From an uncultured Prolixibacteraceae bacterium (GTDB lineage: Bacteria > Bacteroidota > Bacteroidia > Bacteroidales > Prolixibacteraceae): a DNA stretch of 64,000 nucleotides. This document shows, one piece after another, positions 1,142 through 30,565 of the stretch (the first letter of the stretch is position 1; each line of letters opens with the position of its first letter). The notes under the pieces are model-generated. The model did not search any database, was not told the origin of the DNA, and saw only the letters and a program-made list of their open reading frames with translations. The stretch is taken from positions 2,021,719 through 2,085,718 of the forward strand of contig OW818695.1 in the NCBI GenBank assembly GCA_942493345.1. The letters are read 5' to 3'. The position numbers and the translations under genes are program-made.

Positions 1142-2212
1142 TCAATATGAAATGTCGTATTGGTCGAATGATTCGGTCCGCCAGGCCAAATGCCTTGTTG
1201 AAGGAGATGCCCAAAATAAAGGAGAGAAGGTACGTACCTTTATCGTTTTCTGATCGGGCAAAAATTCCAGGATACGGAGCCATCCGTCGCCGCCGTTGCC
1301 ATGCCAGCCCCCGCCTTCACGCTGGGCATTGAAAAGCATCTGATGCACTTTCTTACCGGCCAGGTTGTCGTCTTCCCGGTAGCTGACCATTCCTTCATGT
1401 GATTCCGTGTCAGCAATATGACCACAAAAAACGAACTTCATGTTTGCCGATGGTTGTACAAAATCATTCCAGATCGCGATTCCATAGTTTGCATCGACCA
1501 ACGCATACTTTTCATTGTCGATCCTCTGCCCTTTTGAATCCTGATAACTGTGCGTCAGCAGAACACCCAAATAGTCTTTATATTCAGGCCTCGCAGCCAC
1601 CTGTTTTGCCCATTCCAGCATTTCTGCCCGCGGGGCGAATTCGAGTGAAAGTACGAGGAATGATTGTCCGAACGGAGATTTCCATTGATAGCAGGCATTT
1701 TCAAGCGTTTTTACTCCTGTTGCATTCGGGGCCATTTCAACCAGCAGAGATTGTGTCAGCAGGTTTCCCTGCGGAGGAAAATAACTGTTGAACTGTGAGT
1801 ACCGGTTTTCGGCGCTTTTAATACCATAATCATGATTGCCCGTGCACAGAATATAGGGTATCCGATTGTTTAATTTACTGAAGGCCGACCCGGCTGCTTC
1901 CCATTGTTGAAGGCTGGTCTGGTCGCCATTCTTTCCGTCGGCAACAAGTATATTGTTCTGTTCAACAAGATCGCCGACACAAAGCACCAGTTGAATACTC
2001 AACTTGTCCTTTTGATCGGCAATCCAACCGGTAACCAGTTGAAACAGGGGCTGATTGCGTTCAAATTTATTGTAAGTCTGAGGATCGGGCAATAAAATCC
2101 AGGTGTACGAATTTGGATCGGAAAGTTTTGGCGCATTGTCCAGGGTTTGTTGCGCAAATAGTTGAAACCATGCCAACAGGAAGATAACGGAAGAAAGAAT
2201 CAGTTTCTTCAT
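1142..2212 (-). CDS. Secreted calcineurin-like metallophosphoesterase
   Basis: 356-aa ORF with a signal peptide (MKKLILSSVIFLLAWFQLFAQ). Metallophosphoesterase motifs present: VGDLVEQNN, CTGNHDYG, LLTHS, CGHIADTESHEG. Confidence 0.85.
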   Translation of the reverse strand: MKKLILSSVIFLLAWFQLFAQQTLDNAPKLSDPNSYTWILLPDPQTYNKFERNQPLFQLVTGWIADQKDKLSIQLVLCVGDLVEQNNILVADGKNGDQTSLQQWEAAGSAFSKLNNRIPYILCTGNHDYGIKSAENRYSQFNSYFPPQGNLLTQSLLVEMAPNATGVKTLENACYQWKSPFGQSFLVLSLEFAPRAEMLEWAKQVAARPEYKDYLGVLLTHSYQDSKGQRIDNEKYALVDANYGIAIWNDFVQPSANMKFVFCGHIADTESHEGMVSYREDDNLAGKKVHQMLFNAQREGGGWHGNGGDGWLRILEFLPDQKTIKVRTFSPLFWASPSTRHLAWRTESFDQYDISY

Positions 2213-2438
2213 GATGATAGTTGTTAGAGTTTATAATGAATAATGTCTGATAAAAATACAAGAAAGTAGCTTACCTGATTGCAAAACGAAATACAAATCG
2301 ATGATAAAAAGTAATAATCAATGCGAACCTCCCTGCCTAAGAGGTCTCTGAAATTCGTCGATGTATTTCTAATTAAAATGCACCAATAAAAGAACACAGC
2401 TTAACTGACGGACAATCAATCTGAGCTATAATTCGTTG

Positions 2439-2466
2439 TTGCATTTTTATAACAAGAAAAATGCAA
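2439..2466 (-). terminator. Stem-loop 21 nt downstream of the 2487-3713 gene
   Basis: Perfect 10-bp stem TTGCATTTTT / AAAAATGCAA with an 8-nt loop. The A/T tracts lie within the arms, so it could act in both directions. Confidence 0.45.
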
Positions 2467-2486
2467 TATAGAAATTATTTGTTGGG

Positions 2487-3713
2487 TTATAAATTTAAAG
2501 TACCGAGTGTTTCACCACGATCATCTATCATTTTAAGATTTAATGCCTGCCCGGTTATCTTTATATCGATAATGGTTCGATTTCCATCTTTTGGACCGCC
2601 ACCAATCACGATGGGATATTCATGCTGCCCTTTTACCGGTTGATGAATACCCGATTTGTGCGTATGACCGCATAACATCAAATCTATTTTTGAGACATTA
2701 AAAATAGGCCCCCATATCTCGTTATAATGTTCGGAAGCATGTGCATCGCCACCCAGATAATAAGCAGGAATATGCATAAATACTACTTTGTATTTTGCCT
2801 TTTTAAAGGATTTTTTCTGAACTTCTTTTTCCAGCCACTTACCTTGTTGTTCGCGGTAAGCATCAAAATCGATAATTCCTCCATTAACAGGATCTTCGTC
2901 GGATTTTGTTTCACCCGAATCTAAGACAATGCCATACATTGGGCCATATTGAAATGAATAGTAATATTTATTTTCTCCGCCATCAACGTATTTACCCAAC
3001 TCTCTGGCATAAGTACTCCATGTTTCGTGATTTCCTCTTGCAAAGAAAAAAGGAATTGTTGTTGCACCCAAGTCGGTAAGCGGATTTATCAAATGGTCAA
3101 CGATCTGATTCTCATCTTCCACCTTACTTAATATATCACCATTTAAGAGAACAAAATCCTTTTTGCCAGAGCTTTGTTTCATTAAAGCAGCAAATGATTC
3201 AGGACGATCGTGTAAATCGTTAAAAACAACAAATTCGACACTGTCCATATCCTTTGATAAGGTTGTAAAAGAATATACTTCGCTGTAACCGGGCTCACCA
3301 AACGATTGACGTTTCCGCTCCATATTCTCAGTTTTTCTGGAAACAGCCCTGTAATAATACGTTTTACCAGGCAACAGATTTGAAAGTGTAATCGCATGAA
3401 CCGTATTATCTACCTGAACCATGCCGTCTTCTGTTTGTTGAGCCTTCTGATTAAGTGTTTGAGGGTTTTCTCCATATTCAACCCAGCTATGGCACGGGCT
3501 ATTTGTGATCCAGCGTATGTTTATACGATCTGTTTTTACAGCCTGCAGATAAGGCTTACACTTCATGTTCCCGGTTGCCCCTTCTACTATTGGTGTAGTT
3601 TCCGAAAATCCTTTAAGAGGGCTAAAACCTACCGCCGCACCAATTAAACCAATGGAAGTTAAAAATTTTCTTCTGTTAAATTGTTGATTAATTTGCTCTT
3701 GCATACTATTCAT
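2487..3713 (-). CDS. Purple-acid-phosphatase-like metallophosphoesterase with a twin-arginine signal
   Basis: 408-aa ORF with a Tat-type N-terminus (NRRKFLTSIGLIGAAVG). Motifs present: FNDLHD, NGDILS, RGNHETW, FMHIP, CGHTHKSG. An N-terminal beta-domain precedes the catalytic core. Confidence 0.85.
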   Translation of the reverse strand: MNSMQEQINQQFNRRKFLTSIGLIGAAVGFSPLKGFSETTPIVEGATGNMKCKPYLQAVKTDRINIRWITNSPCHSWVEYGENPQTLNQKAQQTEDGMVQVDNTVHAITLSNLLPGKTYYYRAVSRKTENMERKRQSFGEPGYSEVYSFTTLSKDMDSVEFVVFNDLHDRPESFAALMKQSSGKKDFVLLNGDILSKVEDENQIVDHLINPLTDLGATTIPFFFARGNHETWSTYARELGKYVDGGENKYYYSFQYGPMYGIVLDSGETKSDEDPVNGGIIDFDAYREQQGKWLEKEVQKKSFKKAKYKVVFMHIPAYYLGGDAHASEHYNEIWGPIFNVSKIDLMLCGHTHKSGIHQPVKGQHEYPIVIGGGPKDGNRTIIDIKITGQALNLKMIDDRGETLGTLNL

Positions 3714-3999
3714 GTTTTTTTAAATCCTGCTGAAGGTACACTAATTTACTAATACTAAACTCCGTTCGACAGAAGATAAAAGTCGTTTGAATTTGGGGAA
3801 AGTCACAACGCTCCTGAGTAACAAAGTACCTAAGAAAAAAAGAAAGATCTATATTATGATCCTGATGAATCTATATTTTGTTCAAATTTCATTTACAACG
3901 AGATTTTTACTTTGTCACTCAGTAACTTTTGGACTTTGTTTCTTCTATTTTTTTAGATCGAACTCACGTTATTACTATAATTAACTTGATTAACGCTGG

Positions 4000-5625
4000 T
4001 TACTTTTTTAAATTATTTTCCAACGCCATCATTACTTTAGCCGGGTAAACCACACTGTTTAACCAGAAATTCATTGGATATTTAGTAAACATCGTTGGGT
4101 AATCTCCATTGTGTTCTTTTTGAACAAGGGTCAAGGCATTCGCAATTGATTTCGCTTTGGCAAGATAAATTTCCTTTTTTGTAGCGGCATAGGCCTCCCA
4201 ATATGTTTCAATCATCACGCCGGCAGTTCTTGTAACCGGCATAAAAAATCCATATTGTTCCTGAACCGAAGGGGTAATCCAGTTTTTAGAATTCCACCCG
4301 GGGCTTTGTTCCTTGTCTGGAGTATCGTGTATTATAATTGGCAGTGGTTTTTCCCAAATAACAAACTGATCTTCTGCAAAACGAATAAGCTCTTCCGCCA
4401 GTGAAATTTGTATATGGTTTTTCATAAGATATACGGCCATATCACATGCCTGTTCCCGACTGTGCCTCACATAGGGTGGCAATGCCTTAACATCTTCAAA
4501 TTGCGCCTGCCAGTTAAAAGTCTTCACTGGATTTTCCATTATCCAGTTTAAGGCATTTTTTGTAGGATTATCTAATCCGGCGACTCCGTAATTTTTCCGT
4601 AATCTGTCAAAATAATTTATAACAGCAGTAGGAATCGATATATTAGGAGCAGTAGGTTCGCCCGTTTCATAATCGGCGAATAAGTACCAGCTTCCGTTAT
4701 CCAATTGGTTTTTCAAATATGTATCAGAAATGCGTTTTGCAGCATCGAAATATTTTTTATCCCCGATAAGATCATATAAATCGAGGAAAGCATTGCCTGC
4801 ATCGGCACCCATCACAGTAAAATTATTTCTAAGATTCATGTGCGAACCGGGCTTATTTTTTATTCTGGGTCCAAAATATGTTGGAACGAAATATTCCCAA
4901 GCCGAACCTTTTTCATAGCTGATGTTAATCATATAATCTGCTACAATTTTTGCAAGTTCGACAGACCGTTTAGCGTCATCCGAATTCGCTTTCAACCTCG
5001 CATGTGTGACTGCACCAACAACAAGGGCACTGTATATCTTTGCTGGATACCTGTAATATTGATACTCATGATCAGGAGCCTTATCCTTAAGCCAGCATTC
5101 TATATAATCTTTATGCAACAGGTTATTCAGTGCAATTTTAGCACTTTCATCGTATGGCATTACTGCCTTATGGTATGGCCCGTTAAAATAAGCAGCTTTA
5201 TAATACTCCCCGCTTCCGGCCAAGCCTACACTGTCGCCATTCGCATTTAAAGCAATAACCTTTAAACTAAAAGTACCGGTGGGCATTGATGCCCAAACTT
5301 TACTTAAAGGAGAATAAGGCACTTTGCTTTCAAACGTATATTGGCTATTGTCTTCGGATTTGACTACATAGTTATACCTTGCTGCATTCTGGATTAATTT
5401 ATAATCAAAGGCCGGGGCGTAAATAAACTGATGGGCCTTCCCATTCCAGAACGGTGTTTTTCCAAGCTCTCCCGGGCGGATAGGAATAATCGATTCTTCT
5501 TTTGCTATTTCACCAAAAGTTTTCTCTTCTCCGGTTTTTACTCCAGTAAGTGATTTGCAGGAATATAACATCCCTGCAAATGTTATTAATGTGGCATAAA
5601 AGATTATACTTCTTTTCATTTTCAT
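4000..5625 (-). CDS. Secreted lipoprotein of unknown function, paralog 1 of a triplicated ~545-aa family
   Basis: 541-aa ORF with a lipobox (FAGMLYSCKS). It shares long motif blocks with 5697-7352 and 9064-10707: FIYAPAF, YYRYPAKI, GAVTxARLK, DAGNAxLDLYDL, NGSWY, SREQxCDMAxYL, LAEELIRFAEDQF, GDYPTxF. Confidence 0.85.
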   Translation of the reverse strand: MKMKRSIIFYATLITFAGMLYSCKSLTGVKTGEEKTFGEIAKEESIIPIRPGELGKTPFWNGKAHQFIYAPAFDYKLIQNAARYNYVVKSEDNSQYTFESKVPYSPLSKVWASMPTGTFSLKVIALNANGDSVGLAGSGEYYKAAYFNGPYHKAVMPYDESAKIALNNLLHKDYIECWLKDKAPDHEYQYYRYPAKIYSALVVGAVTHARLKANSDDAKRSVELAKIVADYMINISYEKGSAWEYFVPTYFGPRIKNKPGSHMNLRNNFTVMGADAGNAFLDLYDLIGDKKYFDAAKRISDTYLKNQLDNGSWYLFADYETGEPTAPNISIPTAVINYFDRLRKNYGVAGLDNPTKNALNWIMENPVKTFNWQAQFEDVKALPPYVRHSREQACDMAVYLMKNHIQISLAEELIRFAEDQFVIWEKPLPIIIHDTPDKEQSPGWNSKNWITPSVQEQYGFFMPVTRTAGVMIETYWEAYAATKKEIYLAKAKSIANALTLVQKEHNGDYPTMFTKYPMNFWLNSVVYPAKVMMALENNLKK

Positions 5626-5696
5626 TTTTCATTTAAAATTTTGGGCACTTCTAGTGATCGCTCTTTTTGCAAATCATATCGAACCATGAATGTTTC

Positions 5697-7352
5697 TTAT
5701 TTACTTAATTCCTTCAAATTATTTTCGAGCACCATCATCATCTTGGCAGGGTAAACCACACTGTTTAACCAAAAATTCGATTTGTAATTCGAAAATAAAG
5801 TTGGATAATCCCCGTCATGTTCGTTTTGTACAACCGTAAAGGTATTTGCAATGGACAGAGCCTTGGCTAGGTATAAATCTTTTTTTGTGACTTTATACGC
5901 CTCACGGTAAGTTTCCATCATAATACATGCAGCCCGGCCAACCGGTTCCCAAAAAACATATTGCTCCTGCACACCAGGGGTAATCCAATTTTCAGGATTC
6001 CATGCGGGACCTTGCCCTTTGTTCCCACTTTTAGGCGCAGGTTTTTCCCAAATTATAAACTGATCTTCAGCAAAACGAATCAATTCCTCCGCCAATTGCA
6101 GATTTTGCGGATTGCCATTAATATTCTTCAAAAGATACATTGCCATATCGCAAACCTGTTCCCGGCTTTGGTTCTTATAGGATGGCTTTGCAACAATATC
6201 TTCAAACTGGCCTTGCCAGTCATACGTTTTAACCGGGTTATCCATGATCCATTGCAACGCTTTTTTTGTAGCATTTTCAAGGTCTGAAATATTATAGTCG
6301 CGGCTCAATCGGTCAAAATAATTAATGGTTGACGTTGGAATCGCAATATTGGGAAGAGCGGGTTTGCCTGTATTGACATCGATGAACATGTACCAGCTCC
6401 CGTTGTCCAACTGCGTTTTCACATAGGTCCGTGCGATCCGTTCTGCCGCATCAAGGTATTTCTTGTCGGAAGTAAGGTCATATAAATCTAAATAAGCATT
6501 ACCGCCATCGGCAGCCGAAATAATAAGATCATTGTTCGTATTAATATAAGGAGTCACCTCTTTAAAAATTGCCTCGTATCCTCTATATGTTGGCGGAAAA
6601 TATTCCAACGGTGTTCCTTTCTCGAAACTGACACTAATCAAATAATCAGCAATAATACAGGCTAGTTCAGTATAACGTTTAGCATCGGGTGTGTTTGATT
6701 TTAACCTGGCCTGAGTGACTGCACCGATAACTAAAGCTCCCATGATTTTTGCAGGATATCTGTAATACTCATATCCAGGGTCGGGCGCTTTATGTGTAAA
6801 CCAGTAATTAACGAAATCCTTCTTCAGTAACTTATCCAAAGCAATCATGGCGCTTTTGTCATACGGCATTACTGGTTGATGATAGATTCCGTTAAAATAT
6901 GCAGCACGATAATATTTGCCTTCGCCGGCAACGCCTAATATTTGCCCGGTCGATGAAATCCCGGTTACTTTTAAAGTAAAACCCCCAACCGGGATTGAAG
7001 TCCAGACCATACTTAACGGGGCATAAGGAACCCTGCTCTCAAAATTGTACTTACTTGAATCTGTTAATGAAACAATTTCATACAGGTATTTATCGGATTT
7101 ATCAACGATTTTGTAGTTAAATGCTGGCGCGAAAATAAACTGGCGCGAAAATTCATTCCAAAATGAAATTTCACCCGGGATGCCCGGACGAACCGGAATA
7201 ATTGATTCCTGTAAGGCTTGTTGTCCATACATACTTTTACCGTCAAACTGGGCCTGAACTGATATATTAACAAAGCATATTAATCCCAAGAAGAATAAAC
7301 CTACTTTAATCTTTTGGGGAAGATTCACTGAAAAAAAAGAATAGTTATACAT
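5697..7352 (-). CDS. Secreted protein of unknown function, paralog 2 of the triplicated family
   Basis: 551-aa ORF with a signal peptide ending VQAQ and the same motif blocks as paralogs 1 and 3. Confidence 0.85.
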   Translation of the reverse strand: MYNYSFFSVNLPQKIKVGLFFLGLICFVNISVQAQFDGKSMYGQQALQESIIPVRPGIPGEISFWNEFSRQFIFAPAFNYKIVDKSDKYLYEIVSLTDSSKYNFESRVPYAPLSMVWTSIPVGGFTLKVTGISSTGQILGVAGEGKYYRAAYFNGIYHQPVMPYDKSAMIALDKLLKKDFVNYWFTHKAPDPGYEYYRYPAKIMGALVIGAVTQARLKSNTPDAKRYTELACIIADYLISVSFEKGTPLEYFPPTYRGYEAIFKEVTPYINTNNDLIISAADGGNAYLDLYDLTSDKKYLDAAERIARTYVKTQLDNGSWYMFIDVNTGKPALPNIAIPTSTINYFDRLSRDYNISDLENATKKALQWIMDNPVKTYDWQGQFEDIVAKPSYKNQSREQVCDMAMYLLKNINGNPQNLQLAEELIRFAEDQFIIWEKPAPKSGNKGQGPAWNPENWITPGVQEQYVFWEPVGRAACIMMETYREAYKVTKKDLYLAKALSIANTFTVVQNEHDGDYPTLFSNYKSNFWLNSVVYPAKMMMVLENNLKELSK

Positions 7353-7421
7353 GTGTATTAAATTTTAAAAATTAGAATAATAAATTCTCTTGAATAATAT
7401 CGTGTCGATAAACAATCATTC

Positions 7422-9026
7422 TTAATTACGTTCAGCAATGGTATATTTCCCTTTCTGAGTAAATTCCCTTCGAAACATATCGGTTGCTTTAACTTCAACG
7501 GTATGTTCACCTGCGGGCAAACTACTGTCAAGTCGAATCCACCATAAATGATCGCTTTGAGCTGGGCGTCCCGGTCTTCTTTTACCTGACAACAGAGTTT
7601 TGGTAGTATCCCACTTTAACATTGAATTTAAATAAGAAGGATCATAATCATTCTTTAATTCCATTTTTCCCCATTTTCCTCCATCAATACGATATTCGAC
7701 TTTATCACTTTCATATCCTATAAAAAAATTAGCATAAAGCCACCCTGCAACTTTTTCTTTTTTCTCAATAATTTTTGGCATCCATATCTCCATTTGATAA
7801 TCCTGTGGTTTTCCTGCTGCTTTGTAATCTATGGTATATTGGGTATCCGTAAAATTAATATAGGCATATCCCTTAAGTGTTCCATCTGCCATAGTAGAAA
7901 CAGGGATACCTTTTGCATCAAGCTCTCCCGAGTACCAGTTTCCGCAGGTTGTACCAACATTGTAATGATGATGAGGTTTTTCTTGCTTCCATCCGTCTGC
8001 TTTTGTAAAGAATTCCTGATACTGAATATGAGTATGGGCAGACAAGGATAGTGTATATGGGAAATCGGACAAAAGGTCAAATATACGTTGTTTGTATGCC
8101 GTTTCGACCTGTTCATTTCTACGCTGTAGAGGAGCATGCATAGCGAAAACAACCAGCTTGTTTTTGGGAACAAATTTCAAATCGTTTTCTATAAATTTGA
8201 GTTGGTCCTCTCGTAAATAATCATCTTTCTTATCTTCTCCTTTTGAATTGGGAAAAATAATATTATCAATAATGACGAAGTGCACATTGCTGTAATTAAA
8301 CGAATAATTGGCAGGGCCAAAATTAGCTTCAAAACTCTCGTCGGATAGACTATCTGCCGTTACGTCTTTATTCATATCATGATTTCCAAGCACATTATAC
8401 CAAGGAATACCTGCTCTGCTGACCGCCTTTTTATACGGTTCAAACATGTTTAAATTGTCGAAAGCCATATCGCCGAGGCTTAACCCGAAGGCCGTATTTT
8501 TTATGCCGGTAACTTCATTCATTATGCCCCGGGTAAAGAAGTCGACTTCTTCAAGGTTAGAAATCTGCGGATCACCGAAAACGAGTATAGTAAATTTCTC
8601 GTCTTCAACATTTGGAGTTAGAGCAAAGTCAATGTATTCGGGTAAATTTCCGGTAGGTGAAACACCTTTGTATTTAAGTCTTGGAGAACCTTGGGGCTTA
8701 TGAATGTAATAAAATTGGGGTAGATTATTTTCGTCTACATTAACTTTGTATCCGGATGGTTTAATTACAAATATGATATTGTCGTTATCTACAGGCAATT
8801 TATATTTTCCTTGTTTGTCGGTCAATACAACATCGTGTCCATTTGAAACTGCAACATTGCTAATGCCATTCTCCCGATATTCTTTCGTGTTGTTTCCGTT
8901 AGAATCTTCGAATACAAATCCAGTAACAAGGGATTGTGCATGAAGAGCGAAAACGATTAGCAAGTTTGCCATCAATAAGCATATTCTTTTATTGGATATG
9001 CGATTCATTTTTATCATTAAGTTCAT
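7422..9026 (-). CDS. Calcineurin-like phosphoesterase with N-terminal beta-sandwich and C-terminal accessory domains
   Basis: 534-aa ORF with a signal peptide. The N-terminal part has a GFVFEDSNGN...GKYKL pattern (carboxypeptidase-regulatory-like). Catalytic motifs present: VFGDPQ, LGDMAFDN, LGNHDMN, FAMHAPL, SAHTHIQ. The architecture matches 28902-30407. Confidence 0.85.
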   Translation of the reverse strand: MNLMIKMNRISNKRICLLMANLLIVFALHAQSLVTGFVFEDSNGNNTKEYRENGISNVAVSNGHDVVLTDKQGKYKLPVDNDNIIFVIKPSGYKVNVDENNLPQFYYIHKPQGSPRLKYKGVSPTGNLPEYIDFALTPNVEDEKFTILVFGDPQISNLEEVDFFTRGIMNEVTGIKNTAFGLSLGDMAFDNLNMFEPYKKAVSRAGIPWYNVLGNHDMNKDVTADSLSDESFEANFGPANYSFNYSNVHFVIIDNIIFPNSKGEDKKDDYLREDQLKFIENDLKFVPKNKLVVFAMHAPLQRRNEQVETAYKQRIFDLLSDFPYTLSLSAHTHIQYQEFFTKADGWKQEKPHHHYNVGTTCGNWYSGELDAKGIPVSTMADGTLKGYAYINFTDTQYTIDYKAAGKPQDYQMEIWMPKIIEKKEKVAGWLYANFFIGYESDKVEYRIDGGKWGKMELKNDYDPSYLNSMLKWDTTKTLLSGKRRPGRPAQSDHLWWIRLDSSLPAGEHTVEVKATDMFRREFTQKGKYTIAERN

Positions 9027-9063
9027 TGGGTTTACTTATTGTTTGAGGGATATATTCAGATAA

Positions 9064-10707: not shown

Positions 10708-10747
10708 TATCCGATCATTATTTTACCGAATAAACAGGTGCTAACTA

Positions 10748-12400
10748 TTAATTTCCAAGATTTGGATTAATATTAACTTCCGCTTGTGGTATAGGCCAAT
10801 ATTCATCAATCCCTTTGCGAAAACTTCGCGTTGTAACAAACCATCTTTTATACGGATCGGCAGGTGTTGAACTGCTCTTTTTGCGGATTGCTGTTTTTGA
10901 AACCGGATATGGGTGCCCGTAAAAATCATTTTTAAGTACCTGGTCAGCAATTCCCCATCTCAGTAAATCCCAAAGTCTGATTCCTTCCATTGCCAGTTCG
11001 ACACGGCGTTCATTGCGAAGAATAGGCCTCAATAAAGAAGCATCTGTTTGAGTTATTGGAGGCATATTAACCGACGCCCTTCCTCTCACCTTATTAATTG
11101 TTTCATTTAATAACGCCTGATCTATCGCCTGTCCTGCTTCAAGTTTTGCTTCCAGGTAACTTAATAAAATTTCGGAATACCTGATAACTGGGACATTACC
11201 TCCGTAGCCAGTTGTCGGGTTTCCGGTGAAGTTTTCTTCAATATACTTTTTCAAAATAAACCCTGTTTTTGAATTTAAGTTTTGAATACGGTCAACAGAT
11301 TTTGCAGAATCTGGGTGCGTATAAATATAAGAAGCTCGAAGGGGCGCACCATTATAATACATTGTATACTTTAACCTTGGATCGCGATTTTTGCCCATAT
11401 CTTTATAATCATACCGGGGATCAGAGTAGGAAAAAGTTGAGCCATCAGTGAATTGATATGCTTCCATCAAACTTCCAAGAGGGTTTACAAGAGTATATCC
11501 TCCGATTGTACGCGGAGATAATTGTTGGATAAGAGCACTGGCAAACAGATTCGGAATAAACTGTGTGCTGAATATATTTTCACGACTATTTTCATTCGAT
11601 TCCAGAAATATAGTACTGTAATTAGGGTCAATAATGTTATCCCCAAAATCAATAATTGTTTTATAGGTAATTGCTGCATCAGCAAATAATTTCTGTGCCA
11701 ATTGAATACGACCCAAAAATGCAAGACATGCCTGCTTACAGACCCTGCCCGTTTCTGTCGAAGGAATATCCTTAAAACGAGGTAAATCAACAGAGGCTTC
11801 CTGGAATTCAGTTGTTACAAAATCTACAAGTTCCTGATGAGAAGCTTTTGTTACTGTATTCGCTTCTTCAGGTGTGAGTGTTTTGGTAATTAAGGGTACA
11901 GAACCGAAATGCTGTGACATGTAGAAATACTGACATGCCCTGATAAATCTCACTTCTGCAATTATCCTTTTCTTACGTGTTTCATCCATTGTCACCTGAT
12001 CAATATTTTCCAGGAAATCGTTACTGCGGGCAATAACTTTATAAGACATGTTCCAGAAATTACCTAATAAACCCAGATTTGATGTCATCGTTCCGTTCGT
12101 CAATTTATGCCAGGTTGTATTATCTCCCTGCCCGTGGTAGGCATTATCTGTAGCTGCTTCAAGAAATATCAAAGCCTGATATGACCACCAGGATGTAGGT
12201 ACCTGTCCGCCGGTATTTACAGCCAGGTCTCCCCTGTAAACTGCCGTAAGTGCAAGCATCGCATTTGATTCACTAGTCCAGAAAGTTGCGTTATCAAATT
12301 CATCCAATGGTGATTTTTCCAGTTGGTCTTTGCAGGAGGTGGCTATTAATATAATAAGTAAAACAATAGTGAAATGCTTTAAATGATGTATGTGTTTCAT
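10748..12400 (-). CDS. SusD/RagB-family outer-membrane nutrient-binding lipoprotein
   Basis: 550-aa ORF with a lipobox (IATSCKD). It lies directly downstream of a SusC gene. The C-terminus is typical of SusD (WPIPQAEVNINPNLGN). Confidence 0.9.
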   Translation of the reverse strand: MKHIHHLKHFTIVLLIILIATSCKDQLEKSPLDEFDNATFWTSESNAMLALTAVYRGDLAVNTGGQVPTSWWSYQALIFLEAATDNAYHGQGDNTTWHKLTNGTMTSNLGLLGNFWNMSYKVIARSNDFLENIDQVTMDETRKKRIIAEVRFIRACQYFYMSQHFGSVPLITKTLTPEEANTVTKASHQELVDFVTTEFQEASVDLPRFKDIPSTETGRVCKQACLAFLGRIQLAQKLFADAAITYKTIIDFGDNIIDPNYSTIFLESNENSRENIFSTQFIPNLFASALIQQLSPRTIGGYTLVNPLGSLMEAYQFTDGSTFSYSDPRYDYKDMGKNRDPRLKYTMYYNGAPLRASYIYTHPDSAKSVDRIQNLNSKTGFILKKYIEENFTGNPTTGYGGNVPVIRYSEILLSYLEAKLEAGQAIDQALLNETINKVRGRASVNMPPITQTDASLLRPILRNERRVELAMEGIRLWDLLRWGIADQVLKNDFYGHPYPVSKTAIRKKSSSTPADPYKRWFVTTRSFRKGIDEYWPIPQAEVNINPNLGN

Positions 12401-12410
12401 GATTTCTTAA

Positions 12411-15400
12411 TTAAAAAGTTATGTCTATGCCAAGTGTATAGGTTGACATGATCGGATAAAATTCTCCGGTTCCATTAACTTCAGGATCCCAACCTTTTTC
12501 GTATTTGCTGAACGTATGAAGATTCTCTCCACTCATATATAATCTTGCATTCGAAATGCCGATATTTTTAAGGGCTTGCTTCGATATATTATACCCAATT
12601 TGAAGATTTTTTACTCTCAAATAAGAACCATCTAATATCCAATAAGAAGATAACAGGGTATTTGGAACTCCACCACCCGGAACTTTTTCTATGCGTGGAT
12701 AAATTGCATTCCTGTCTGGATTTTGCTCCGTCCAGCGACCTTCATATTGCCAGCGTTGTATATTTCCGGTATTCTGGTTCAAGGCCCAGCTTGCATAGCT
12801 TTGAAGTCTGCCTTTAACACCAGCAATACCTTGCAATAAAATACTTAAATCAAACCCTTTATATTTCACTCCAAGGTTAACACCATAGCTATATTTTGGG
12901 ATCTGGCTTCCCAGAACCACCCTGTCATAAGTAGCATTTACAATTCCGTCAGGAACCCCTTCCGGCCCACTTATATCTTTATACCGGATGTCGCCCGGTT
13001 TAGGATTTGGATTTATACTCTGTTGATCATTCGTCGTTTCATAATCGATGACATCCTGTGCATCAACATAAAGCCCATCGGCAACATAACCGTAATAAAG
13101 CGCATAACTACCATTCGAATTTGGATAACCTATAAAAAGGTCGCTACCATTACCAACCATTCCATTGGGCTGATTAATATTACCTACTCCCAAATCAAGA
13201 ACTTTATTGTTTACGATGGTAAAATTTGCACTAATATTATATGAGAATTCGCCCAGAGTATTACTATGATTTGCAGTAAATTCCCAACCCCGATTCTGCA
13301 ATTCTCCTGTGTTTTGCTGCGACAGGCCAAAACCTAAAACATTCGACACACTAGTAGCCGGGCTATATAAAATGTCATAAGTATACCGATCGAAATACGT
13401 TGCGGAAATATTCAATTTGTTTTCAAACACACTGATGTCCACACCAATATCTTTCGTACGGGTAGACTCCCAATGCAGAGTGCTATCAACCAACGTGGTG
13501 CGTGCAGCTCCAGGCGATATTCCACCACCAAAAGAATACGTTGTGCCGGTTGAAGAAATTAAGGTATTTTGATACGGATAATTGGAAATATTCTGATTCC
13601 CTAATACTCCCCATGAAGCCTTTATTTTCAATTCATTTATCCAGGATATATTATCTTTAATAAATTTTTCCTTGCCAATACTCCAGCCTGCAGCTAACGA
13701 AGGGAATACAGCATACTTCTGGCTGGTTGGAAAACGGGAAGATCCATCTCTTCTAACTACACCCTCTATTAAGTATTTACCTGCAAAATTATAGTTTGCA
13801 CGTGCAAATTGCGATTCTAATGCATATTCTGCGCCAGTTCCGTCCGACTGCTGATTATCAGGAGAACCGGTTTGCAATACTGTAAGATCATTACTTGGCA
13901 AATTATCACGATATGCTTCAAAGTTTTCGGCTGTATAATTTTCAAAAGAATAGCCTGCAAGAAAACTAATAAAATGTTTGTTGAATTGTTTTGAATAATC
14001 GGCCAACCCCTGTATGGTATAATATTCATTGTTTCCGGTTTCTTCTCTCAGGAAATTGGGGCCAACTGTTATATCGTTATTCAGTCGTTGCGTTGACCTG
14101 AAGGTTTTATCACGACTAATATTTTGCCTGTATCCTGCGATAAACGATAATTTCAAATCTTTTATCACTTTATAATCCAGTCTTATATTTCCAGTAAGAT
14201 TTAATTGTTTTCCCCAGTAAAAAGATTTGCTTGCAAGATCGGATACAGGAGTTCCGTTGCTGCTCAAACCTACACCAAAGTCTCCATTATCATATTGGCT
14301 AACAAATATATTAGGCAACCTGGCTGCCTGTTCAATCATATTGAGCATATTTCCCGAGCTTCCACCGGCCGGTGCTATAGGCTCGTTCACTTTTGAAGAT
14401 ATAGCCGCTAAGCGTGTAGTTAAACTAAATTTTGGACTAAAGGTGGTAACCATATTCAAACGTACGTTATAGCGTGAATAATCGTTCTTAATTACCATTC
14501 CGTCTTGGTATAAATATCCAAATGACAGATTATATTTATTCGTATTTGTACCGCCGCTTATATTAATATTATGACCGGTTTGCATACCATTTTTAGAAAT
14601 AATAGCATCCAAAAAGTTGGTGTTCGGATAATTAGGGTCATTTTGAGCTCTGTATTTCTCAACTTCATCCATCTGAGCCTGAGTTAATTGTGAAGTACCA
14701 TTTTCCGCTTCATAATACGCCTGTTGGTATTCCCACGAATTTACATATTCTGGCATCGCCGTAGGAACCTGACTGGCGACATAAGAACTTAGCGAAATTT
14801 GGGGCTTTCCCTCTTTCCCCGATTTTGTAGTCACAAGGATCACACCATTTGCGGCCCTGGATCCATAAATAGCCGCAGAAGAAGCATCTTTCAAAACAGA
14901 TATAGTTTCTACATCATTGGGGTCAATATCATTAAAATTATCTACCGGGGTTCCGTCCACCAAAATCAAAGCATTCGGCGCTGCGCCAAAAGAGCCCACA
15001 CCACGAACACTGATGGTTCCGCTGGAGACGCCTGGTCTGCCACCGCGTTGCGTAACAATTACACCTGCAAGTTGGCCCGTTAGAACATTCTTTAATTCAG
15101 ATACCGATCGGCTAGCAATTTTATCAGTCGACATCTGTGCGATTGAGCCAATTACATTTTCACGTTTTTGAGTGCCATATCCTACAACCACAATTTCCTC
15201 CAATCCTTTTACATCTTCGTCAAGGGTTACATTGATTATAGGTCGTCCATTTACAGCTATTTCCTGCGTCTTCATCCCGATAAACGAAAACACCAGCATG
15301 GCATCTCCCATTAAATCATTGAGCGCATAATTTCCTTCCGAATCAGTAATTGTCCCCTGTGCAGTACCTTGGATTGCAACCGTTGCTCCAGGAACAGGCT

Positions 15401-15845
15401 CTTGTCGAACATTTGTTACTTTCCCACTGACTTTTATTTTCTTTTGTGTCTGATAGGAATTACTCCTCAGAACAATCTGACGATCATGTATTTCATAGGA
15501 AACTTCGGTCCCCATAAAAACCAGGTTAAGTAATTCTTCCAACGACTTGTCTTTAATATTGATGTCAACCTTTCTGGTTACATCAACTTCTTCATTCTTA
15601 TACAAGAAAAAGAATTCGCTCTGGTCTTCAATATCCCGCAATACTTCTTTTACTGAAGCATTTTTCACAGAAACACTAAGCTGCGTTTGTTGCGAATAAA
15701 CACTTGCACTGACATGCACAAAGGCGATCATTAGAATAAACAAGGTTAATTTCATAATACGTAACCATTTAAACAAGGGACTAGAGTGTCCCCCGACATT
15801 TAACCACTTTTTTTTCATAAATTTGCAATTATTAGTGTTATACAA
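12411..15845 (-). CDS. SusC/RagA-family TonB-dependent transporter with an N-terminal anti-sigma signalling (STN-type) extension
   Basis: 1144-aa ORF. It has an N-terminal extension (VKEVLRDIEDQSEFFFLYKNEE), a carboxypeptidase-regulatory-like domain (GKVTNVRQEPVPGATVAIQG...TDSEGNYAL), a plug (VVVGYGTQKREN) and a barrel ending in ...GIDITF. The true start is probably the internal MKKKWLNV (15818). Confidence 0.92.
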   Translation of the reverse strand: MYNTNNCKFMKKKWLNVGGHSSPLFKWLRIMKLTLFILMIAFVHVSASVYSQQTQLSVSVKNASVKEVLRDIEDQSEFFFLYKNEEVDVTRKVDINIKDKSLEELLNLVFMGTEVSYEIHDRQIVLRSNSYQTQKKIKVSGKVTNVRQEPVPGATVAIQGTAQGTITDSEGNYALNDLMGDAMLVFSFIGMKTQEIAVNGRPIINVTLDEDVKGLEEIVVVGYGTQKRENVIGSIAQMSTDKIASRSVSELKNVLTGQLAGVIVTQRGGRPGVSSGTISVRGVGSFGAAPNALILVDGTPVDNFNDIDPNDVETISVLKDASSAAIYGSRAANGVILVTTKSGKEGKPQISLSSYVASQVPTAMPEYVNSWEYQQAYYEAENGTSQLTQAQMDEVEKYRAQNDPNYPNTNFLDAIISKNGMQTGHNINISGGTNTNKYNLSFGYLYQDGMVIKNDYSRYNVRLNMVTTFSPKFSLTTRLAAISSKVNEPIAPAGGSSGNMLNMIEQAARLPNIFVSQYDNGDFGVGLSSNGTPVSDLASKSFYWGKQLNLTGNIRLDYKVIKDLKLSFIAGYRQNISRDKTFRSTQRLNNDITVGPNFLREETGNNEYYTIQGLADYSKQFNKHFISFLAGYSFENYTAENFEAYRDNLPSNDLTVLQTGSPDNQQSDGTGAEYALESQFARANYNFAGKYLIEGVVRRDGSSRFPTSQKYAVFPSLAAGWSIGKEKFIKDNISWINELKIKASWGVLGNQNISNYPYQNTLISSTGTTYSFGGGISPGAARTTLVDSTLHWESTRTKDIGVDISVFENKLNISATYFDRYTYDILYSPATSVSNVLGFGLSQQNTGELQNRGWEFTANHSNTLGEFSYNISANFTIVNNKVLDLGVGNINQPNGMVGNGSDLFIGYPNSNGSYALYYGYVADGLYVDAQDVIDYETTNDQQSINPNPKPGDIRYKDISGPEGVPDGIVNATYDRVVLGSQIPKYSYGVNLGVKYKGFDLSILLQGIAGVKGRLQSYASWALNQNTGNIQRWQYEGRWTEQNPDRNAIYPRIEKVPGGGVPNTLLSSYWILDGSYLRVKNLQIGYNISKQALKNIGISNARLYMSGENLHTFSKYEKGWDPEVNGTGEFYPIMSTYTLGIDITF

Positions 15846-15896
15846 ATCCCGTAAGGGGTTATTTAACCTGATTTCATGTACCGCATGAAGTTTGAA

Positions 15897-15918
15897 GGAA
15901 AGTGTTCCCGCACTTTCC
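15897..15918 (-). promoter_or_regulatory. Conserved stem-loop between the FecR stop and the SusC start (copy 1)
   Basis: GGAAAGTG TTCCCG CACTTTCC, an 8-bp stem with a 6-nt loop. It lies 9 nt past the FecR stop codon. It matches 35761-35782 at 21 of 22 positions. Confidence 0.6.
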
Positions 15919-15926
15919 TTTTTTTA

Positions 15927-16892
15927 TCAGGGTTTACTGATCTTTACTATAGTTTCATTGATTTCATATTTCATATCTGATGTTAATGACAATACTTGCA
16001 GCATTTCGCGCAAACTTTCAGTTTTTATAGTTGTGGTGTATCGTTCGCTGATATCCAAGTTCTCGTCAACCACAATTTTGACATCATACCAGCGTTCCAT
16101 TTTTTTCAGTATTTCAGAAAGTGGGGCATTTTCAAAGCGCAATATATTTTCTTTCCAGGAAGTATATAATTCGGTATCGACTTTAAAAAGTTTTGGCGTT
16201 TTTGATTGTTTTGAAAACTCGAATTGTTCTCCGGGACTCAACTCGAATTTCTTATTGAGGCCCGAAAGAAAAATATTTACAGAACCTTCTTCCAGTGTTA
16301 TAAATATATCGTCTTCAGGATAGGAATATACATTAAATTTTGTTCCCAGCACCAAAACGTCTATTGCCCCGGCATGTACGTTAAACGGTTTTCTCTCGTC
16401 TTTTGCTACTTCGAAATAAGCTTCGCCTTCAACAAAAACATTTCGTTGCCGGCCATTAAATACAACCGGATATTTAAACGTTGTACCTGAATTGAGCCAC
16501 ACTTTGGTTCCGTCGTACAAAGTAACGACCGATTTTTCGCCATTAGGCACCAGTATCTCGTTATATTCTTCGGAAAGCTGATTGATTTGTTTTTGCCCGG
16601 TAAAGTAAAGAGACAAGGCCCCGATCAGAAACGCAAAAATAAAGACGGCAGCATATTTCAGGATTGAAAGCAACGGTTTAATACTTACCAATTTGGCAGA
16701 ATTTCCGTTTTCAAAGAATTTTTGAGAATGTTGAGGCTTCACCTCCTTTAAACCAGTAAGTACCCAGAGGTTTTTCAGCTCGTTGTATCTTTTTTGATTC
16801 AACTCTGAAGCGTCGATCCAATCCAGAATATCACGAACTTCATCGGCTGAGAGGATTGTGCCTTGAATGTATTGCATTAACTTTTCTTCCAT
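15927..16892 (-). CDS. FecR-family anti-sigma factor (transmembrane sensor)
   Basis: 321-aa ORF located between an ECF sigma gene and a SusC gene. It has a single central TM segment (YAAVFIFAFLIGALSLYF) and a periplasmic FecR-like domain. Confidence 0.88.
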   Translation of the reverse strand: MEEKLMQYIQGTILSADEVRDILDWIDASELNQKRYNELKNLWVLTGLKEVKPQHSQKFFENGNSAKLVSIKPLLSILKYAAVFIFAFLIGALSLYFTGQKQINQLSEEYNEILVPNGEKSVVTLYDGTKVWLNSGTTFKYPVVFNGRQRNVFVEGEAYFEVAKDERKPFNVHAGAIDVLVLGTKFNVYSYPEDDIFITLEEGSVNIFLSGLNKKFELSPGEQFEFSKQSKTPKLFKVDTELYTSWKENILRFENAPLSEILKKMERWYDVKIVVDENLDISERYTTTIKTESLREMLQVLSLTSDMKYEINETIVKISKP

Positions 16893-16955
16893 AGGACTGA
16901 AAGGTTTTATAAGTATAACCGAATGGAGATATTTTACCCTAACGCGAAAGGTGAA

Positions 16956-17543
16956 TTATTTCAGAAAAAATAAAATATAGAGCAGTGGAAGGTATTCTTT
17001 TAGTTCCATCCGAAGATGTTTAAGCGCTTTTGAAATATGGGCCTCTACTGTTTTGATACTGATTCCGAGTTCGTCGGCAATCTCCCTGTTCTTTTTATCT
17101 TCGTAACGGCTTTTTTCGAAAACAGTACGTACCGATAGCGATAACTTGGAAAGGGCTTCGTCAACTTTTTGTTGTAGCTCTTCGAACACAAAGTTGCTGG
17201 TGTCAAAATCAGAGAGGGATTTATAGTTGATTTCCATTTCTCGGACTCTTAAATAGTCACCATACCTTTGCTTCGTCCGTTCTTTGCTGATTTGCTTCAG
17301 CGACTTGTTCTTTGTAACCGTAAACAACCAAGCCTGAATATTCGTATCGTCCTGAAGGTTTTTCCGATGTTCCCAAAGTTCGGTAAAAACATCCTGTACC
17401 AAGCTATTAGCGGCCTCGGCGTCCAGCAAATACTGATTAGCGAAATACGACAATTTTGGGTAGAAAAAGCTGTACAAACCTTCAAACACAGGTTCATCGC
17501 CCGATTTAATTTTTTGTGCTATTTCCGATCCTGATAGGTTCAC
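16956..17543 (-). CDS. ECF-type RNA polymerase sigma-70 factor
   Basis: 195-aa ORF. Region 2 reads LVQDVFTELWEHRKNL and the region 4 HTH reads ELGISIKTVEAHISKALKHLR. Confidence 0.9.
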   Translation of the reverse strand: MNLSGSEIAQKIKSGDEPVFEGLYSFFYPKLSYFANQYLLDAEAANSLVQDVFTELWEHRKNLQDDTNIQAWLFTVTKNKSLKQISKERTKQRYGDYLRVREMEINYKSLSDFDTSNFVFEELQQKVDEALSKLSLSVRTVFEKSRYEDKKNREIADELGISIKTVEAHISKALKHLRMELKEYLPLLYILFFLK

Positions 17544-17875
17544 TTGCGTTTGGTCTTGCGAAATTAACTTGCTTCAACAAATCAAAAGTAGACAGAAAAA
17601 TTCATATTTGTGACTTCTGAACAGATTGCTTTTAGTCAAAGCATCCACATAAAAAAGAAATTGTTTATACAAATTCCGTTTTTTGAACTCCTCCCACATT
17701 CGCTTGTGCAAGATTTAGATTGCAGAAAAGAATCTCCTAAAATCTTTTTCAATAGTTGAGTTTTCTAAGGTGTTTTTCATATTTACTGGACACTCGTTAT
17801 TTGACTACAGATTTCACACAAAAATCAAAACTTTTTGCCGTAAATTGTCCTTCATAATAATTAAAACCGAATAAA

Positions 17876-25322: not shown

Positions 25323-25487
25323 TTTCCTGTTTTTTTGTATCTGTCAAAACTAATTTTTTATACCTGTTATATCAACAGTTAAATAACACATATTGTCACT
25401 CCACGAAAGCGAAGAATCTTCGGTTCAACTCTAATTTACAACAGATTTTTCACTCCGTTCAGCATGACAAAACAATGTTGAGACACA

Positions 25488-26600: not shown

Positions 26601-26615
26601 ATCTTTAATCTAAAA

Positions 26616-27566: not shown

Positions 27567-27592
27567 GTCTGTTTTTTCTATTTAAATTTTTT

Positions 27593-30554: not shown

Positions 30555-30565
30555 CCAGAGATCTT

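Follow-up and report, generated by a model that had tools for sequence, protein, structure and literature searches.

A SusC/SusD locus of an uncultured Prolixibacteraceae bacterium combines secreted metallophosphoesterases with a candidate six-hairpin glycan-enzyme family

A SusC/SusD locus that carries secreted phosphoesterases raises the question of what it takes up: a polymer joined by phosphodiester bonds, an organophosphate used for its phosphate, or a glycan that bears phosphate. The locus lies in a 64,000-nucleotide stretch of contig OW818695.1 from an uncultured Prolixibacteraceae bacterium, which is the window referred to throughout. Pfam, NCBIfam and the ORF list identify an ECF sigma factor, a FecR protein, a SusC with an STN domain, a SusD, three paralogs of one protein and three metallophosphoesterases. 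An earlier note had described these genes as one minus-strand array, and all 10 of its ORFs, from the sigma gene to the third metallophosphoesterase, are confirmed.

16956..17543, minus strand: ECF sigma factor, Bacteroidetes subfamily (TIGR02985; Sigma70_r2/r4_2)
15927..16892, minus strand: FecR-type anti-sigma factor (FecR and FecR_C in Pfam; hydropathy)
12411..15845, minus strand: SusC/RagA TonB-dependent transporter with an N-terminal STN signalling domain (TIGR04056; STN; CarbopepD_reg_2; Plug)
10748..12400, minus strand: SusD-family surface lipoprotein (SusD_RagB, E = 1.6e-42)
9064..10707, minus strand: six-hairpin paralog 1 (AF2; Foldseek; profile against PDB)
7422..9026, minus strand: periplasmic MetallophosN/Metallophos/MetallophosC enzyme (Pfam; AF2; Foldseek)
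5697..7352, minus strand: six-hairpin paralog 2 (identity to paralog 1; sub-threshold six-hairpin clan matches)
4000..5625, minus strand: six-hairpin paralog 3, a lipoprotein (identity to paralog 1; sequence)
2487..3713, minus strand: Tat-exported PAP-like metallophosphoesterase (Pur_ac_phosph_N and Metallophos)
2432..2473, minus strand: AT-rich hairpin just 3' of the PAP-like gene (sequence)
1142..2212, minus strand: third secreted metallophosphoesterase (Metallophos, E = 1.8e-7)

The genes from the sigma factor through paralog 3 are separated by 10-81 bp; 286 bp lie upstream of the PAP-like gene and 274 bp upstream of the last phosphoesterase gene. All cargo proteins begin with a hydrophobic N-terminal stretch, and lipoboxes are found in SusD (ATSC) and paralog 3 (MLYSC), in agreement with the signal peptide or lipobox that the earlier note gave to all cargo. 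The sigma factor scores 161.9 bits against TIGR02985 (cutoff 126.4), and a motif scan of the intergenic gaps of the locus returned a single TAnnTTTG -7-like box at 17583-17590, upstream of the sigma gene. The anti-sigma protein contains FecR (E = 1.4e-17) and FecR_C (E = 1.7e-18) domains and one transmembrane segment predicted from hydropathy at about residues 77-95. SusC matches TIGR04056 with E = 7.9e-272, and its STN domain (residues 80-128, E = 3.5e-11) is followed by CarbopepD_reg_2 and Plug. The SusC ORF opens at TTG, and an ATG 9 codons downstream (MKKKW...) is the more likely start. This domain content and gene order support a trans-envelope-signalling SusC/SusD system that carries an unusual number of secreted phosphoesterases. 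By analogy with established STN/FecR/ECF behaviour, an oligomer bound by SusC/SusD would signal via the STN domain to FecR, and the ECF sigma factor would then be released to direct transcription of the operon.

The cargo had been described as containing no CAZyme. This holds at curated family thresholds, where no GH or PL model of Pfam or NCBIfam reaches its cutoff and matches to the six-hairpin clan are sub-threshold, but it does not hold for the fold of the triplicated protein. The three paralogs share 57-59% identity (57% for paralog 2 and 59% for paralog 3, each against paralog 1), and paralogs 1 and 2 have SPI-type signal peptides. They match no Pfam, NCBIfam or PDB family, and phmmer finds no PDB match at E ≤ 10. 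The AF2 model of paralog 1 (pLDDT 92.8) consists of an N-terminal β-sandwich and an (α/α)6 six-hairpin barrel, and its Foldseek matches are glycan-active (α/α)6 families and AGE epimerases and nothing else. The nearest fold relatives are GH76 enzymes, with GH47, GH88, PL27 and the AGE epimerases more distant, and the best PDB match of the paralog-family profile is the GH76 protein BT2949 (E = 1.7e-4). Membership of GH76 was rejected because PF03663 falls below cutoff and the GH76 Foldseek match reaches only about TM 0.5. The paralogs share their fold, repeated hairpin signature and secreted PUL location with the six-hairpin superfamily (GH76, GH47, GH88, GH127, GH144, PL27, AGE), but they lack a family-level sequence match and carry the extra N-terminal β-sandwich. 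Among 85 homologs of 23-66% identity, conservation reaches at least 95% at five acidic residues (E368, D369, E415, D416 and E460 in paralog 1) and at about eight Trp. The paralogs look like candidate glycan-cleaving enzymes; the family could alternatively comprise lyases, epimerase-like enzymes or binding proteins. This six-hairpin candidate CAZyme family is the chief novelty of the locus.

The family comprises 362 clusters (50% identity) at E ≤ 1e-30, and its members are spread over glycan-degrading phyla. Its neighbours include GH43 (7 loci), GDSL esterases (6), GH127 (5) and GH20 (4), with DUF4838 and a GH67N-like protein as further partners, and members are fused to GH78, GH20, GH2, glucuronyl esterase and AXE domains. 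A sugar-acid catabolic gene set (SDR/TauE/DHDPS/MR_MLE/SMP-30/FAH) recurs near the family in relatives and is absent from the window. SusC/SusD pairs orthologous to the present one (62-80% identity; 62-74% for SusD) occur in eight other loci and are always accompanied by the family, which is the conserved partner of this SusC/SusD orthogroup. The fold of the paralogs and the glycoside hydrolases, carbohydrate esterases and sugar-acid genes around and within the family contradict the earlier view that glycoside-active cargo is absent and phosphoester cleavage the sole chemistry.

The MetallophosN/C enzyme is encoded between paralogs 1 and 2 with gaps of 37-69 bp. In its AF2 model (pLDDT 87), the β-sandwich domains MetallophosN (PF16371) and MetallophosC (PF16370) flank a catalytic core that resembles class III phosphodiesterases, with Foldseek matches to Rv0805 (TMt 0.70), Lmo2642 and lupin PPD1. 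The core superposes on Rv0805 and keeps the binuclear-metal ligands. It differs from Rv0805, GpdQ and PPD1 in motif I (GDxQ, not DxH), in overall sequence (13-16% identity), in being secreted and in the two flanking domains. Its motifs are GD152-P-Q154, GD186, GNHD214-217, H297 and AH331-T-H333, and the ligand positions are kept in 79 homologs. The PAP-like protein has the organization of a secreted purple acid phosphatase, with an FN3-like Pur_ac_phosph_N domain (E = 2.1e-13) preceding the Metallophos domain (E = 1.7e-19). It differs from purple acid phosphatases in its Tat export (twin-arginine motif RRKFL), in a motif I of DxH rather than GDxG and in a Ser that replaces the chromophoric Tyr of GDxxY (alignment to 1xzw), and its metal-ligand motifs are complete (DxH/GD/GNHE/H/GHTH). 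The ligand motifs are intact in these two main phosphoesterases. The claim that all three enzymes keep every motif stands for the PAP-like protein, but the MetallophosN/C enzyme has Gln for the motif-I His and the last enzyme (DPQ/GD/GNHD/H/GHIA) has GHIA in place of GHxH.

On balance, the locus appears to be a substrate-inducible PUL-type system whose target is a glycan or glycoconjugate that is anionic and decorated with phosphate. Because the paralogs look like sugar-cleaving enzymes placed beside phosphate removers, such a glycan is probable over a purely phosphodiester-linked polymer. The three paralogs, one lipid-anchored and two soluble in the periplasm, would cleave glycosidic bonds as hydrolases or lyases, and the secreted metallophosphoesterases would strip phosphate groups that otherwise block them, freeing phosphate. 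We infer both this substrate and a division of labour in which the phosphodiesterase-like core of the MetallophosN/C enzyme would act on diesters and the Tat-exported PAP-like enzyme would be the likely monoesterase. The arrangement is like that of the yeast α-mannan PULs of Bacteroides thetaiotaomicron, in which Cuskin et al. reportedly described GH76, GH92, GH99 and GH125 enzymes with mannose-6-phosphatases in 2015; there too, six-hairpin endo-enzymes (GH76) stand beside accessory phosphatases that dephosphorylate the glycan. Those phosphatases are said to be EEP-family enzymes, not metallophosphoesterases. The present locus also differs in that its paralogs are not GH76 and it has no GH92, GH99, GH125 or GH38.

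Phosphoesterases are recurrent but optional partners of the six-hairpin family. MetallophosN/C orthologs adjoin six-hairpin homologs in loci L081 and L011, and the L081 ortholog (76% identity) occupies the same position. PAP-like orthologs (58-73% identity) adjoin them in all three related contigs inspected (L165, L166 and L167), and L165 contains an EEP phosphatase. Two homologs are themselves fusions, one to a GDPD phosphodiesterase and one to Y_phosphatase3, of the tyrosine-phosphatase family. Metallophosphoesterases are rare near the family as a whole (8 of 722 ORFs at 73 loci). Roughly one in two loci that have an orthologous SusC/SusD show no phosphoesterase in the available sequence, and the substrate may accordingly bear phosphate only variably or as a minor feature.

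The gene set had been thought unprecedented, but ECF-controlled SusCD systems are already paired with phosphoesterases in Pus1 and Pus2 of Flavobacterium johnsoniae, which combine an ECF sigma/anti-sigma pair, SusCD-like PusCD and calcineurin-like or PI-PLC phosphodiesterases and have been described as CAZyme-poor and induced by phosphate starvation (PMC8115612; bioRxiv 10.64898/2026.09.03.749221). Growth on phosphatidylinositol/GroPI depends on Pus1, and the authors of that work suggest that it takes up GlcA-containing inositol phosphoglycans (PMC8115612; bioRxiv 10.64898/2026.09.03.749221; PMC11496612). The present locus shares with them the SusC/SusD-like pair, the ECF sigma/anti-sigma control, co-localised secreted phosphodiesterases or phosphomonoesterases, a calcineurin-like (PF00149) enzyme and a proposed phosphorylated sugar-like ligand. 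It differs in its three six-hairpin copies, in having no PI-PLC and in a SusC/SusD orthogroup that accompanies GH-like and sugar-acid catabolic genes. It is possible, though rather unlikely, that the locus likewise scavenges phosphorus, importing an organophosphate mainly for its phosphate (for example a glycerophospho-glycan, or an inositol phosphoglycan derived from the GIPC sphingolipids of plants or fungi) while the six-hairpin enzymes merely trim the headgroup. Besides the Pus1 precedent and the GDPD fusion, MetallophosN/C homologs are the sole cargo of four minimal sigma/FecR/SusCD loci (L082, L086, L090 and L092), which is consistent with a pure organophosphate role, and the window has metallophosphoesterase motifs in 6 of 53 ORFs and a second FecR/SusCD/phosphoesterase locus at 23943-36773. 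However, conservation ties the SusC/SusD orthogroup to the six-hairpin family and to GH-like proteins but not to phosphoesterases, and carbon-catabolic genes adjoin the locus in relatives. The MetallophosN/C core is similar to phosphodiesterases of the cyclic-nucleotide type, and no sphingomyelinase-like enzyme occurs among its 50 best Foldseek matches.

On the earlier note's reading, the phosphoesterases would instead depolymerise a phosphodiester-linked polymer (a teichoic-acid-like polyol phosphate, phosphomannan side chains, a phosphosugar capsule or a nucleic acid), and the triplicated protein would have a non-glycosidic role. A phosphate-bearing substrate is reasonable, since phosphoesterases adjoin or fuse with the family, but a nucleic acid or simple polyol phosphate is at odds with the conserved partners of glycan type, and Pfam finds no nuclease among the locus ORFs. 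In favour of such depolymerisation are the three secreted phosphoesterases, of which two have complete ligand motifs, the phosphodiesterase-like MetallophosN/C fold, the GDPD fusion and the sub-cutoff GH/PL models. It is doubtful given the six-hairpin fold and conserved acidic pairs of the triplicated protein, the glycoside hydrolases and carbohydrate esterases that neighbour or fuse with its family and the many orthologous loci with no phosphoesterase in the sequence available.

That the operon ends at paralog 3 or the PAP-like gene, with the downstream phosphoesterase(s) independent and sharing no substrate, is improbable: the two long gaps, the hairpin, the elevated GC of the final gene, the single weak homolog of its product near the family elsewhere and a generally phosphoesterase-rich genome region favour it, but the MetallophosN/C gene lies closely between paralogs in a position kept in L081, PAP-like orthologs adjoin family members in three other contigs, and the gaps contain neither a canonical terminator nor a TAnnTTTG box. 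In the AT-rich hairpin at 2432-2473, the core pairs perfectly over 10 bp and a T-tract is missing; the terminator scan did not report this hairpin, which is not a canonical terminator. Locus membership is least certain for the last phosphoesterase because of the 274-bp gap, the hairpin and its GC content of 0.466, compared with 0.37-0.41 in the rest of the locus. Its gene may form a separate transcription unit, and a single weak homolog lies near a six-hairpin gene elsewhere (L019).

ORF listing and Pfam and NCBIfam scans reproduced the gene order and coordinates of the array at 1142-17543 as first described, with all genes on the minus strand.

Genes of the locus (coordinates, strand, assignment)
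16956-17543, minus, ECF sigma factor (TIGR02985, 161.9 bits, cutoff 126.4)
15927-16892, minus, FecR anti-sigma factor (FecR and FecR_C; one transmembrane segment, residues 77-95)
12411-15845, minus, SusC (TIGR04056, E 7.9e-272; STN at residues 80-128, E 3.5e-11; CarbopepD_reg_2; Plug)
10748-12400, minus, SusD (SusD_RagB, E 1.6e-42)
9064-10707, minus, paralog 1 of the unclassified 545-aa protein
7422-9026, minus, MetallophosN/Metallophos/MetallophosC protein (MetallophosN/C enzyme)
5697-7352, minus, paralog 2
4000-5625, minus, paralog 3
2487-3713, minus, Pur_ac_phosph_N and Metallophos domains, RRKFL Tat motif (PAP-like enzyme)
1142-2212, minus, third Metallophos protein

The susC and susD genes are adjacent, as in a PUL, with 10 bp between them, and the ECF sigma factor, FecR, and the STN domain on SusC constitute a dedicated regulator. 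The STN transporter, single-TM FecR, and ECF sigma factor are the components of FecIR-type trans-envelope signalling in its Bacteroidetes PUL variant. Intergenic gaps measure 10-81 bp from the sigma gene to paralog 3, followed by gaps of 286 bp and 274 bp. A motif scan of the intergenic gaps of the locus picked up a single TAnnTTTG box, upstream of the sigma gene, and between the downstream genes the terminator and motif scans found neither a terminator nor a promoter of canonical type. The stem-loop noted earlier lies at 2432-2473 as an AT-rich hairpin, but it has no T-tract and is absent from the terminator scan output. Rfam and tRNA scans of the whole window were empty. Each cargo protein has a hydrophobic N-terminal leader and lipoboxes are found on SusD and paralog 3, in agreement with the secretion signals assigned earlier. 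The last gene has a GC content of 0.466 compared with 0.37-0.41 in the rest of the locus. Its neighbor is the N-terminal part of a GH123 (β-N-acetylgalactosaminidase family) gene at 2-832 on the minus strand that runs off the window, and the GC of this fragment and the 1142-2212 gene is 0.47-0.49.

The three paralogs share 57-59% identity and could not be assigned to a known family, all Pfam and NCBIfam matches being sub-threshold. These weak matches all fall within the six-hairpin clan (GH47, GH127, C5-epim_C, GlcNAc_2-epim, and Pectate_lyase_2 (PL2)); PF25840 (Ulvan_lyase_N) is a faint precomputed match. The AlphaFold2 model, built on 47 homologs (pLDDT 92.8, pTM 0.91), has a β-sandwich at the amino terminus followed by an α/α barrel. 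Foldseek comparison with the PDB returned only (α/α)6 proteins with modest TM-scores, drawn from GH76, the AGE-family epimerases, PL27, GH47, GH88, and GH144, and the best match was GH76 (6u4z, E 3.7e-10, TMq 0.47; 4v1s, TMt 0.64). A phmmer search of the PDB found no chain at E ≤ 10, and the sole match in a profile search was the GH76 protein BT2949 (E 1.7e-4), which arose from the repeated hairpin motif. The phmmer and profile results therefore leave the protein, as modelled, as a six-hairpin protein outside every family with a solved member, the newly solved GH192-194 included. The earlier statement that the locus contains no CAZyme stands to the extent that no curated Pfam or NCBIfam GH or PL model matches at its cutoff, but the fold of the paralogs and their genomic context are CAZyme-like.

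The predicted model shares the (α/α)6 fold of the GH76 α-1,6-mannanases in Foldseek, but by sequence the paralogs are not members of GH76 (PF03663): the family model does not match the window paralogs and reaches one homolog at E 0.02, below the cutoff, and the BT2949 profile match goes no lower than E 1.7e-4. The family keeps two adjacent acid pairs, E368-D369 and E415-D416, either of which might correspond to the adjacent catalytic Asp-Asp pair of GH76. The Foldseek match to GH144 and the phosphoglycerol carried by β-1,2-glucans prompted a β-1,2-glucanase reading (GH144, GH162, and GH192-194, clan GH-S, as described in PMC12102758), which was dismissed as a family assignment, as only GH144 5z06 was matched (rank 26, TMq 0.37) and there was no sequence match. 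Residues conserved in at least 95% of 85 homologs (23-66% identity) are E368-D369, E415-D416-Q417, E460-Q461, R412, K494, and about eight tryptophans, a pattern that suggests a catalytic site lying on a surface that binds sugars. The family comprises 362 clusters (50% identity) at E ≤ 1e-30 and extends across Bacteroidota, Verrucomicrobiota, Planctomycetota, Lentisphaerota, Kiritimatiellales, Chloroflexota, and gut Firmicutes.

Orthologs of the window SusC and SusD (62-80% identity) co-occur with one to four six-hairpin copies in the loci L024/L001 (Sphingobacteriaceae), L006 (Daejeonella), L012 (Christiangramia), L014, L080, L081, L165, and L167, and in L080 there is also a FecR gene and the SusC bears an STN domain. 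What these loci conserve is thus the combination of SusCD with the six-hairpin family. The variable companions of this core are an orthologous GH67N-like protein (714-754 aa), DUF4838-like proteins (the DUF4838 domain is the catalytic one in GH163 and GH185; PMC10570127), GDSL and BD-FAE esterases, and sulfatases. Genes for SDR, TauE, DHDPS-family, SSF, MR_MLE dehydratase, SMP-30 lactonase, a second SDR, and FAH hydrolase recur as a catabolic block that looks like a non-phosphorylative route for a sugar acid, uronate, or 6-deoxy-sugar. A sulfoquinovose (sulfo-ED) interpretation of the SDR, TauE, lactonase, dehydratase, and aldolase genes draws solely on their co-occurrence and was set aside, an oxidative uronate or 6-deoxy-sugar route fitting equally. 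The triad of SDR, TauE/SafE-family permease, and DHDPS-family genes is tightly linked to six-hairpin genes in L006, L011, L012, L014, L078, L080, and L167. Neighbors in distant loci include GH43 (seven loci), GH127 (five), and GH20 (four), and the fusion partners found among 38 long family members include GH78, GH20, GH2, DUF4838, glucuronyl esterase, and AXE1. These neighbors and fusion partners place the family, as far as gene context can, in glycan breakdown, contrary to the earlier reading of the locus as one without glycan-active cargo.

PF00149 scores above its gathering cutoff of 21.5 bits in all three phosphoesterase genes (28.5, 71.5, and 32.2 bits). The motifs had been described as intact in all three, and this is correct for the PAP-like enzyme (full DxH/GD/GNHE/H/GHxH), but the motif-I His is replaced by Gln in the MetallophosN/C enzyme and the last enzyme has DPQ and GHIA, the latter missing the second His of motif V. 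All ligands of the MetallophosN/C enzyme other than the motif-I Gln are conserved among 79 homologs. In its model (pLDDT 87) the catalytic core comes closest in Foldseek to Rv0805, a class III phosphodiesterase (TMt 0.70), followed by Lmo2642 and the lupin PAP-type PPD1. The MetallophosN/C family is very common in Bacteroidota, and in 80 metagenomic loci retrieved with homologs 40-58% identical, an adjacent SusC is present in 16 and an ECF sigma factor in 11. Minimal sigma/FecR/SusC/SusD/MetallophosN-C loci are represented by L082, L086, and L090, and L092 has the SusC/SusD/MetallophosN-C core. The MetallophosN/C enzyme is therefore a habitual SusCD cargo by itself. The PAP-like enzyme has an FN3-like PF16656 domain in its N-terminal part (E 2.1e-13, 51.1 bits, cutoff 30). 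Purple acid phosphatases have an Fe(III)-tyrosinate center formed by the Tyr of GDxxY, whereas this enzyme lacks the Tyr (GDILS aligns with GDLSY of 1xzw) and is otherwise intact.

Phosphoesterases and six-hairpin genes are physically associated in several loci. The MetallophosN/C enzyme is paired with six-hairpin genes in L081, where a 76% ortholog occupies the same position between two paralogs, and in L011 (54%). Close homologs of the PAP-like enzyme (58-73% identity) adjoin a six-hairpin gene in each of the three contigs inspected.

Contigs with adjoining PAP-like and six-hairpin genes, and a fusion ORF
L165, SusC, SusD, GH67N-like, six-hairpin, PAP-like, esterase, EEP phosphatase, sulfatase
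L166, six-hairpin gene adjoining PAP-like gene
L167, SusC, SusD, PAP-like, six-hairpin, further genes, the last of them SDR, TauE, DHDPS
L162, 10001-12400, P0125 fusion ORF

P0125 is a six-hairpin homolog (40% identical) that continues in a single ORF into a C-terminal GDPD phosphodiesterase, and a second homolog, P0257, is fused to a CX5R tyrosine-phosphatase-family domain (Y_phosphatase3). Among the L162 neighbors of P0125 are genes for sulfatase, aldose epimerase, and HpcH aldolase. Metallophosphoesterases were not enriched near the six-hairpin family as a whole in 73 loci, and about half of the orthologous loci have no phosphoesterase in the sequence available. Because only 8 of 722 ORFs around family members in those 73 loci carry the metallophosphoesterase motif, the phosphoesterase link does not go beyond the subclade that has orthologous SusC/SusD, plus a few fusions. 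We conclude from these gene associations that phosphate removal is probably a genuine but accessory, lineage-variable function of the system.

Phosphatases inside glycan PULs are known from the mannan PULs of B. thetaiotaomicron. The earlier note had taken the gene set as an unestablished PUL specificity; this no longer holds, since SusCD loci with phosphoesterase cargo have been published as the phosphate utilisation systems (Pus) of Flavobacterium johnsoniae (PMC8115612). Pus1 and Pus2 carry ECF sigma/anti-sigma pairs, and the products of Pus1 include a PI-PLC and a calcineurin-like phosphodiesterase (bioRxiv 10.64898/2026.09.03.749221). The likeness is one of gene content: Pus combine a SusCD-like pair with secreted phosphomono- or diesterases, and the locus has three secreted PF00149 proteins after SusD on the same strand. 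What sets it apart from both Pus and the mannan PULs is that it unites the two themes and adds a six-hairpin family that is triplicated and unclassified. Searching the literature for a teichoic-acid PUL gave no relevant result. SusCD with phosphoesterase cargo is already known, and the most valuable element of the locus is the candidate new CAZyme family.

By analogy with the established behavior of this architecture, ligand-bound SusC would signal via STN to FecR and free the sigma factor. Oligomers would be imported by SusCD, and the glycan would be cleaved by the lipid-anchored paralog and two soluble paralogs. The phosphodiesterase-like MetallophosN/C enzyme may then take off phosphodiester-linked phosphate, and the Tat-exported PAP-like enzyme monoester phosphate. 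Candidate substrates are the GlcA-containing inositol phosphoglycans of GIPC sphingolipids, bacterial wall polysaccharides decorated with glycerophosphate, fungal phosphomannan, and other anionic heteroglycans. A stronger proposal, which we regard as rather doubtful, is that the 545-aa proteins are a new CAZyme family for phosphate-bearing glycans (candidates being GIPC inositol phosphoglycans and glycerophosphate-decorated bacterial wall polysaccharides) that has on several occasions recruited phosphoesterases unrelated to one another (metallophosphoesterases, GDPD, PTP-like, and EEP), and that the locus is the first example of a "phosphoglycan utilisation locus", with obligate coupling of glycosidic to phosphoester cleavage under a single SusCD importer controlled by an ECF sigma factor. 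If the mechanism outlined before this stronger proposal is right, the locus points to a moderately sized, uncharacterised family of candidate glycan enzymes in Bacteroidota, Verrucomicrobiota, Planctomycetota, and gut Firmicutes, whose secreted, multi-copy, SusCD-linked members offer a clear experimental handle. The locus would stand between carbon-oriented classical PULs and phosphorus-oriented Pus systems and would suggest a continuum of SusCD importers taking phosphorylated glycoconjugates for both carbon and phosphorus, with a bearing on how phosphoglycans of microbial and plant cell envelopes are turned over in soils and sediments.

The window shows a strong enrichment in phosphoesterases, with the metallophosphoesterase motif GD...GNH[DE] in 6 of its 53 ORFs and PHP, HAD (18362-19009), and NAGPA domains besides. 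A second locus at 23943-36773 on the minus strand has no six-hairpin gene and no sigma gene was found adjoining it.

Genes of the second locus (coordinates, strand, assignment)
35790-36773, minus, FecR
32333-35698, minus, SusC
30566-32317, minus, SusD
28902-30407, minus, MetallophosN/C
27593-28843, minus, DgoT-like sugar-acid MFS symporter
26616-27566, minus, Metallophos protein with a weak GpdQ match
25488-26600, minus, PHP-domain protein
23943-25322, minus, PF12831 FAD oxidoreductase

This second locus looks like a purer organophosphate/sugar-acid system. A NAGPA "phosphodiester glycosidase" of the uncovering-enzyme family is encoded at 50327-51184 on the minus strand, next to a xylose-isomerase-like TIM barrel (49163-50104, minus) and a GxDLY/SGNH esterase (48047-49150, minus), and this group (48047-51184) is a further hint of sugar-phosphodiester chemistry in the genome. 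A secreted 627-aa protein at 61669-63552 (minus) has a Metallophos domain fused to a PQQ/BamB-like β-propeller. The sugar catabolic cluster at 51946-61593 contains a divergent AraC regulator, RhaM mutarotase, MFS sugar transporter, DUF4432, class II aldolase, FGGY kinase, xylose-isomerase-like TIM barrel, and two proteins (398 and 442 aa) without a Pfam match. Its AraC is 34-36% identical to AraC genes inside the six-hairpin loci L012, L014, L017, L021, and L022, and the 398-aa protein is 48% identical to one encoded roughly 4 kb away from the L039 six-hairpin gene. Three cyclophilin-type peptidyl-prolyl isomerase genes lie in a row at 40186-43240 on the plus strand, at least two of them with a signal peptide or lipoprotein signal, and at 43267-47520 (minus) a secreted 812-aa protein without a Pfam match adjoins an NrfA-type cytochrome c552 nitrite reductase.
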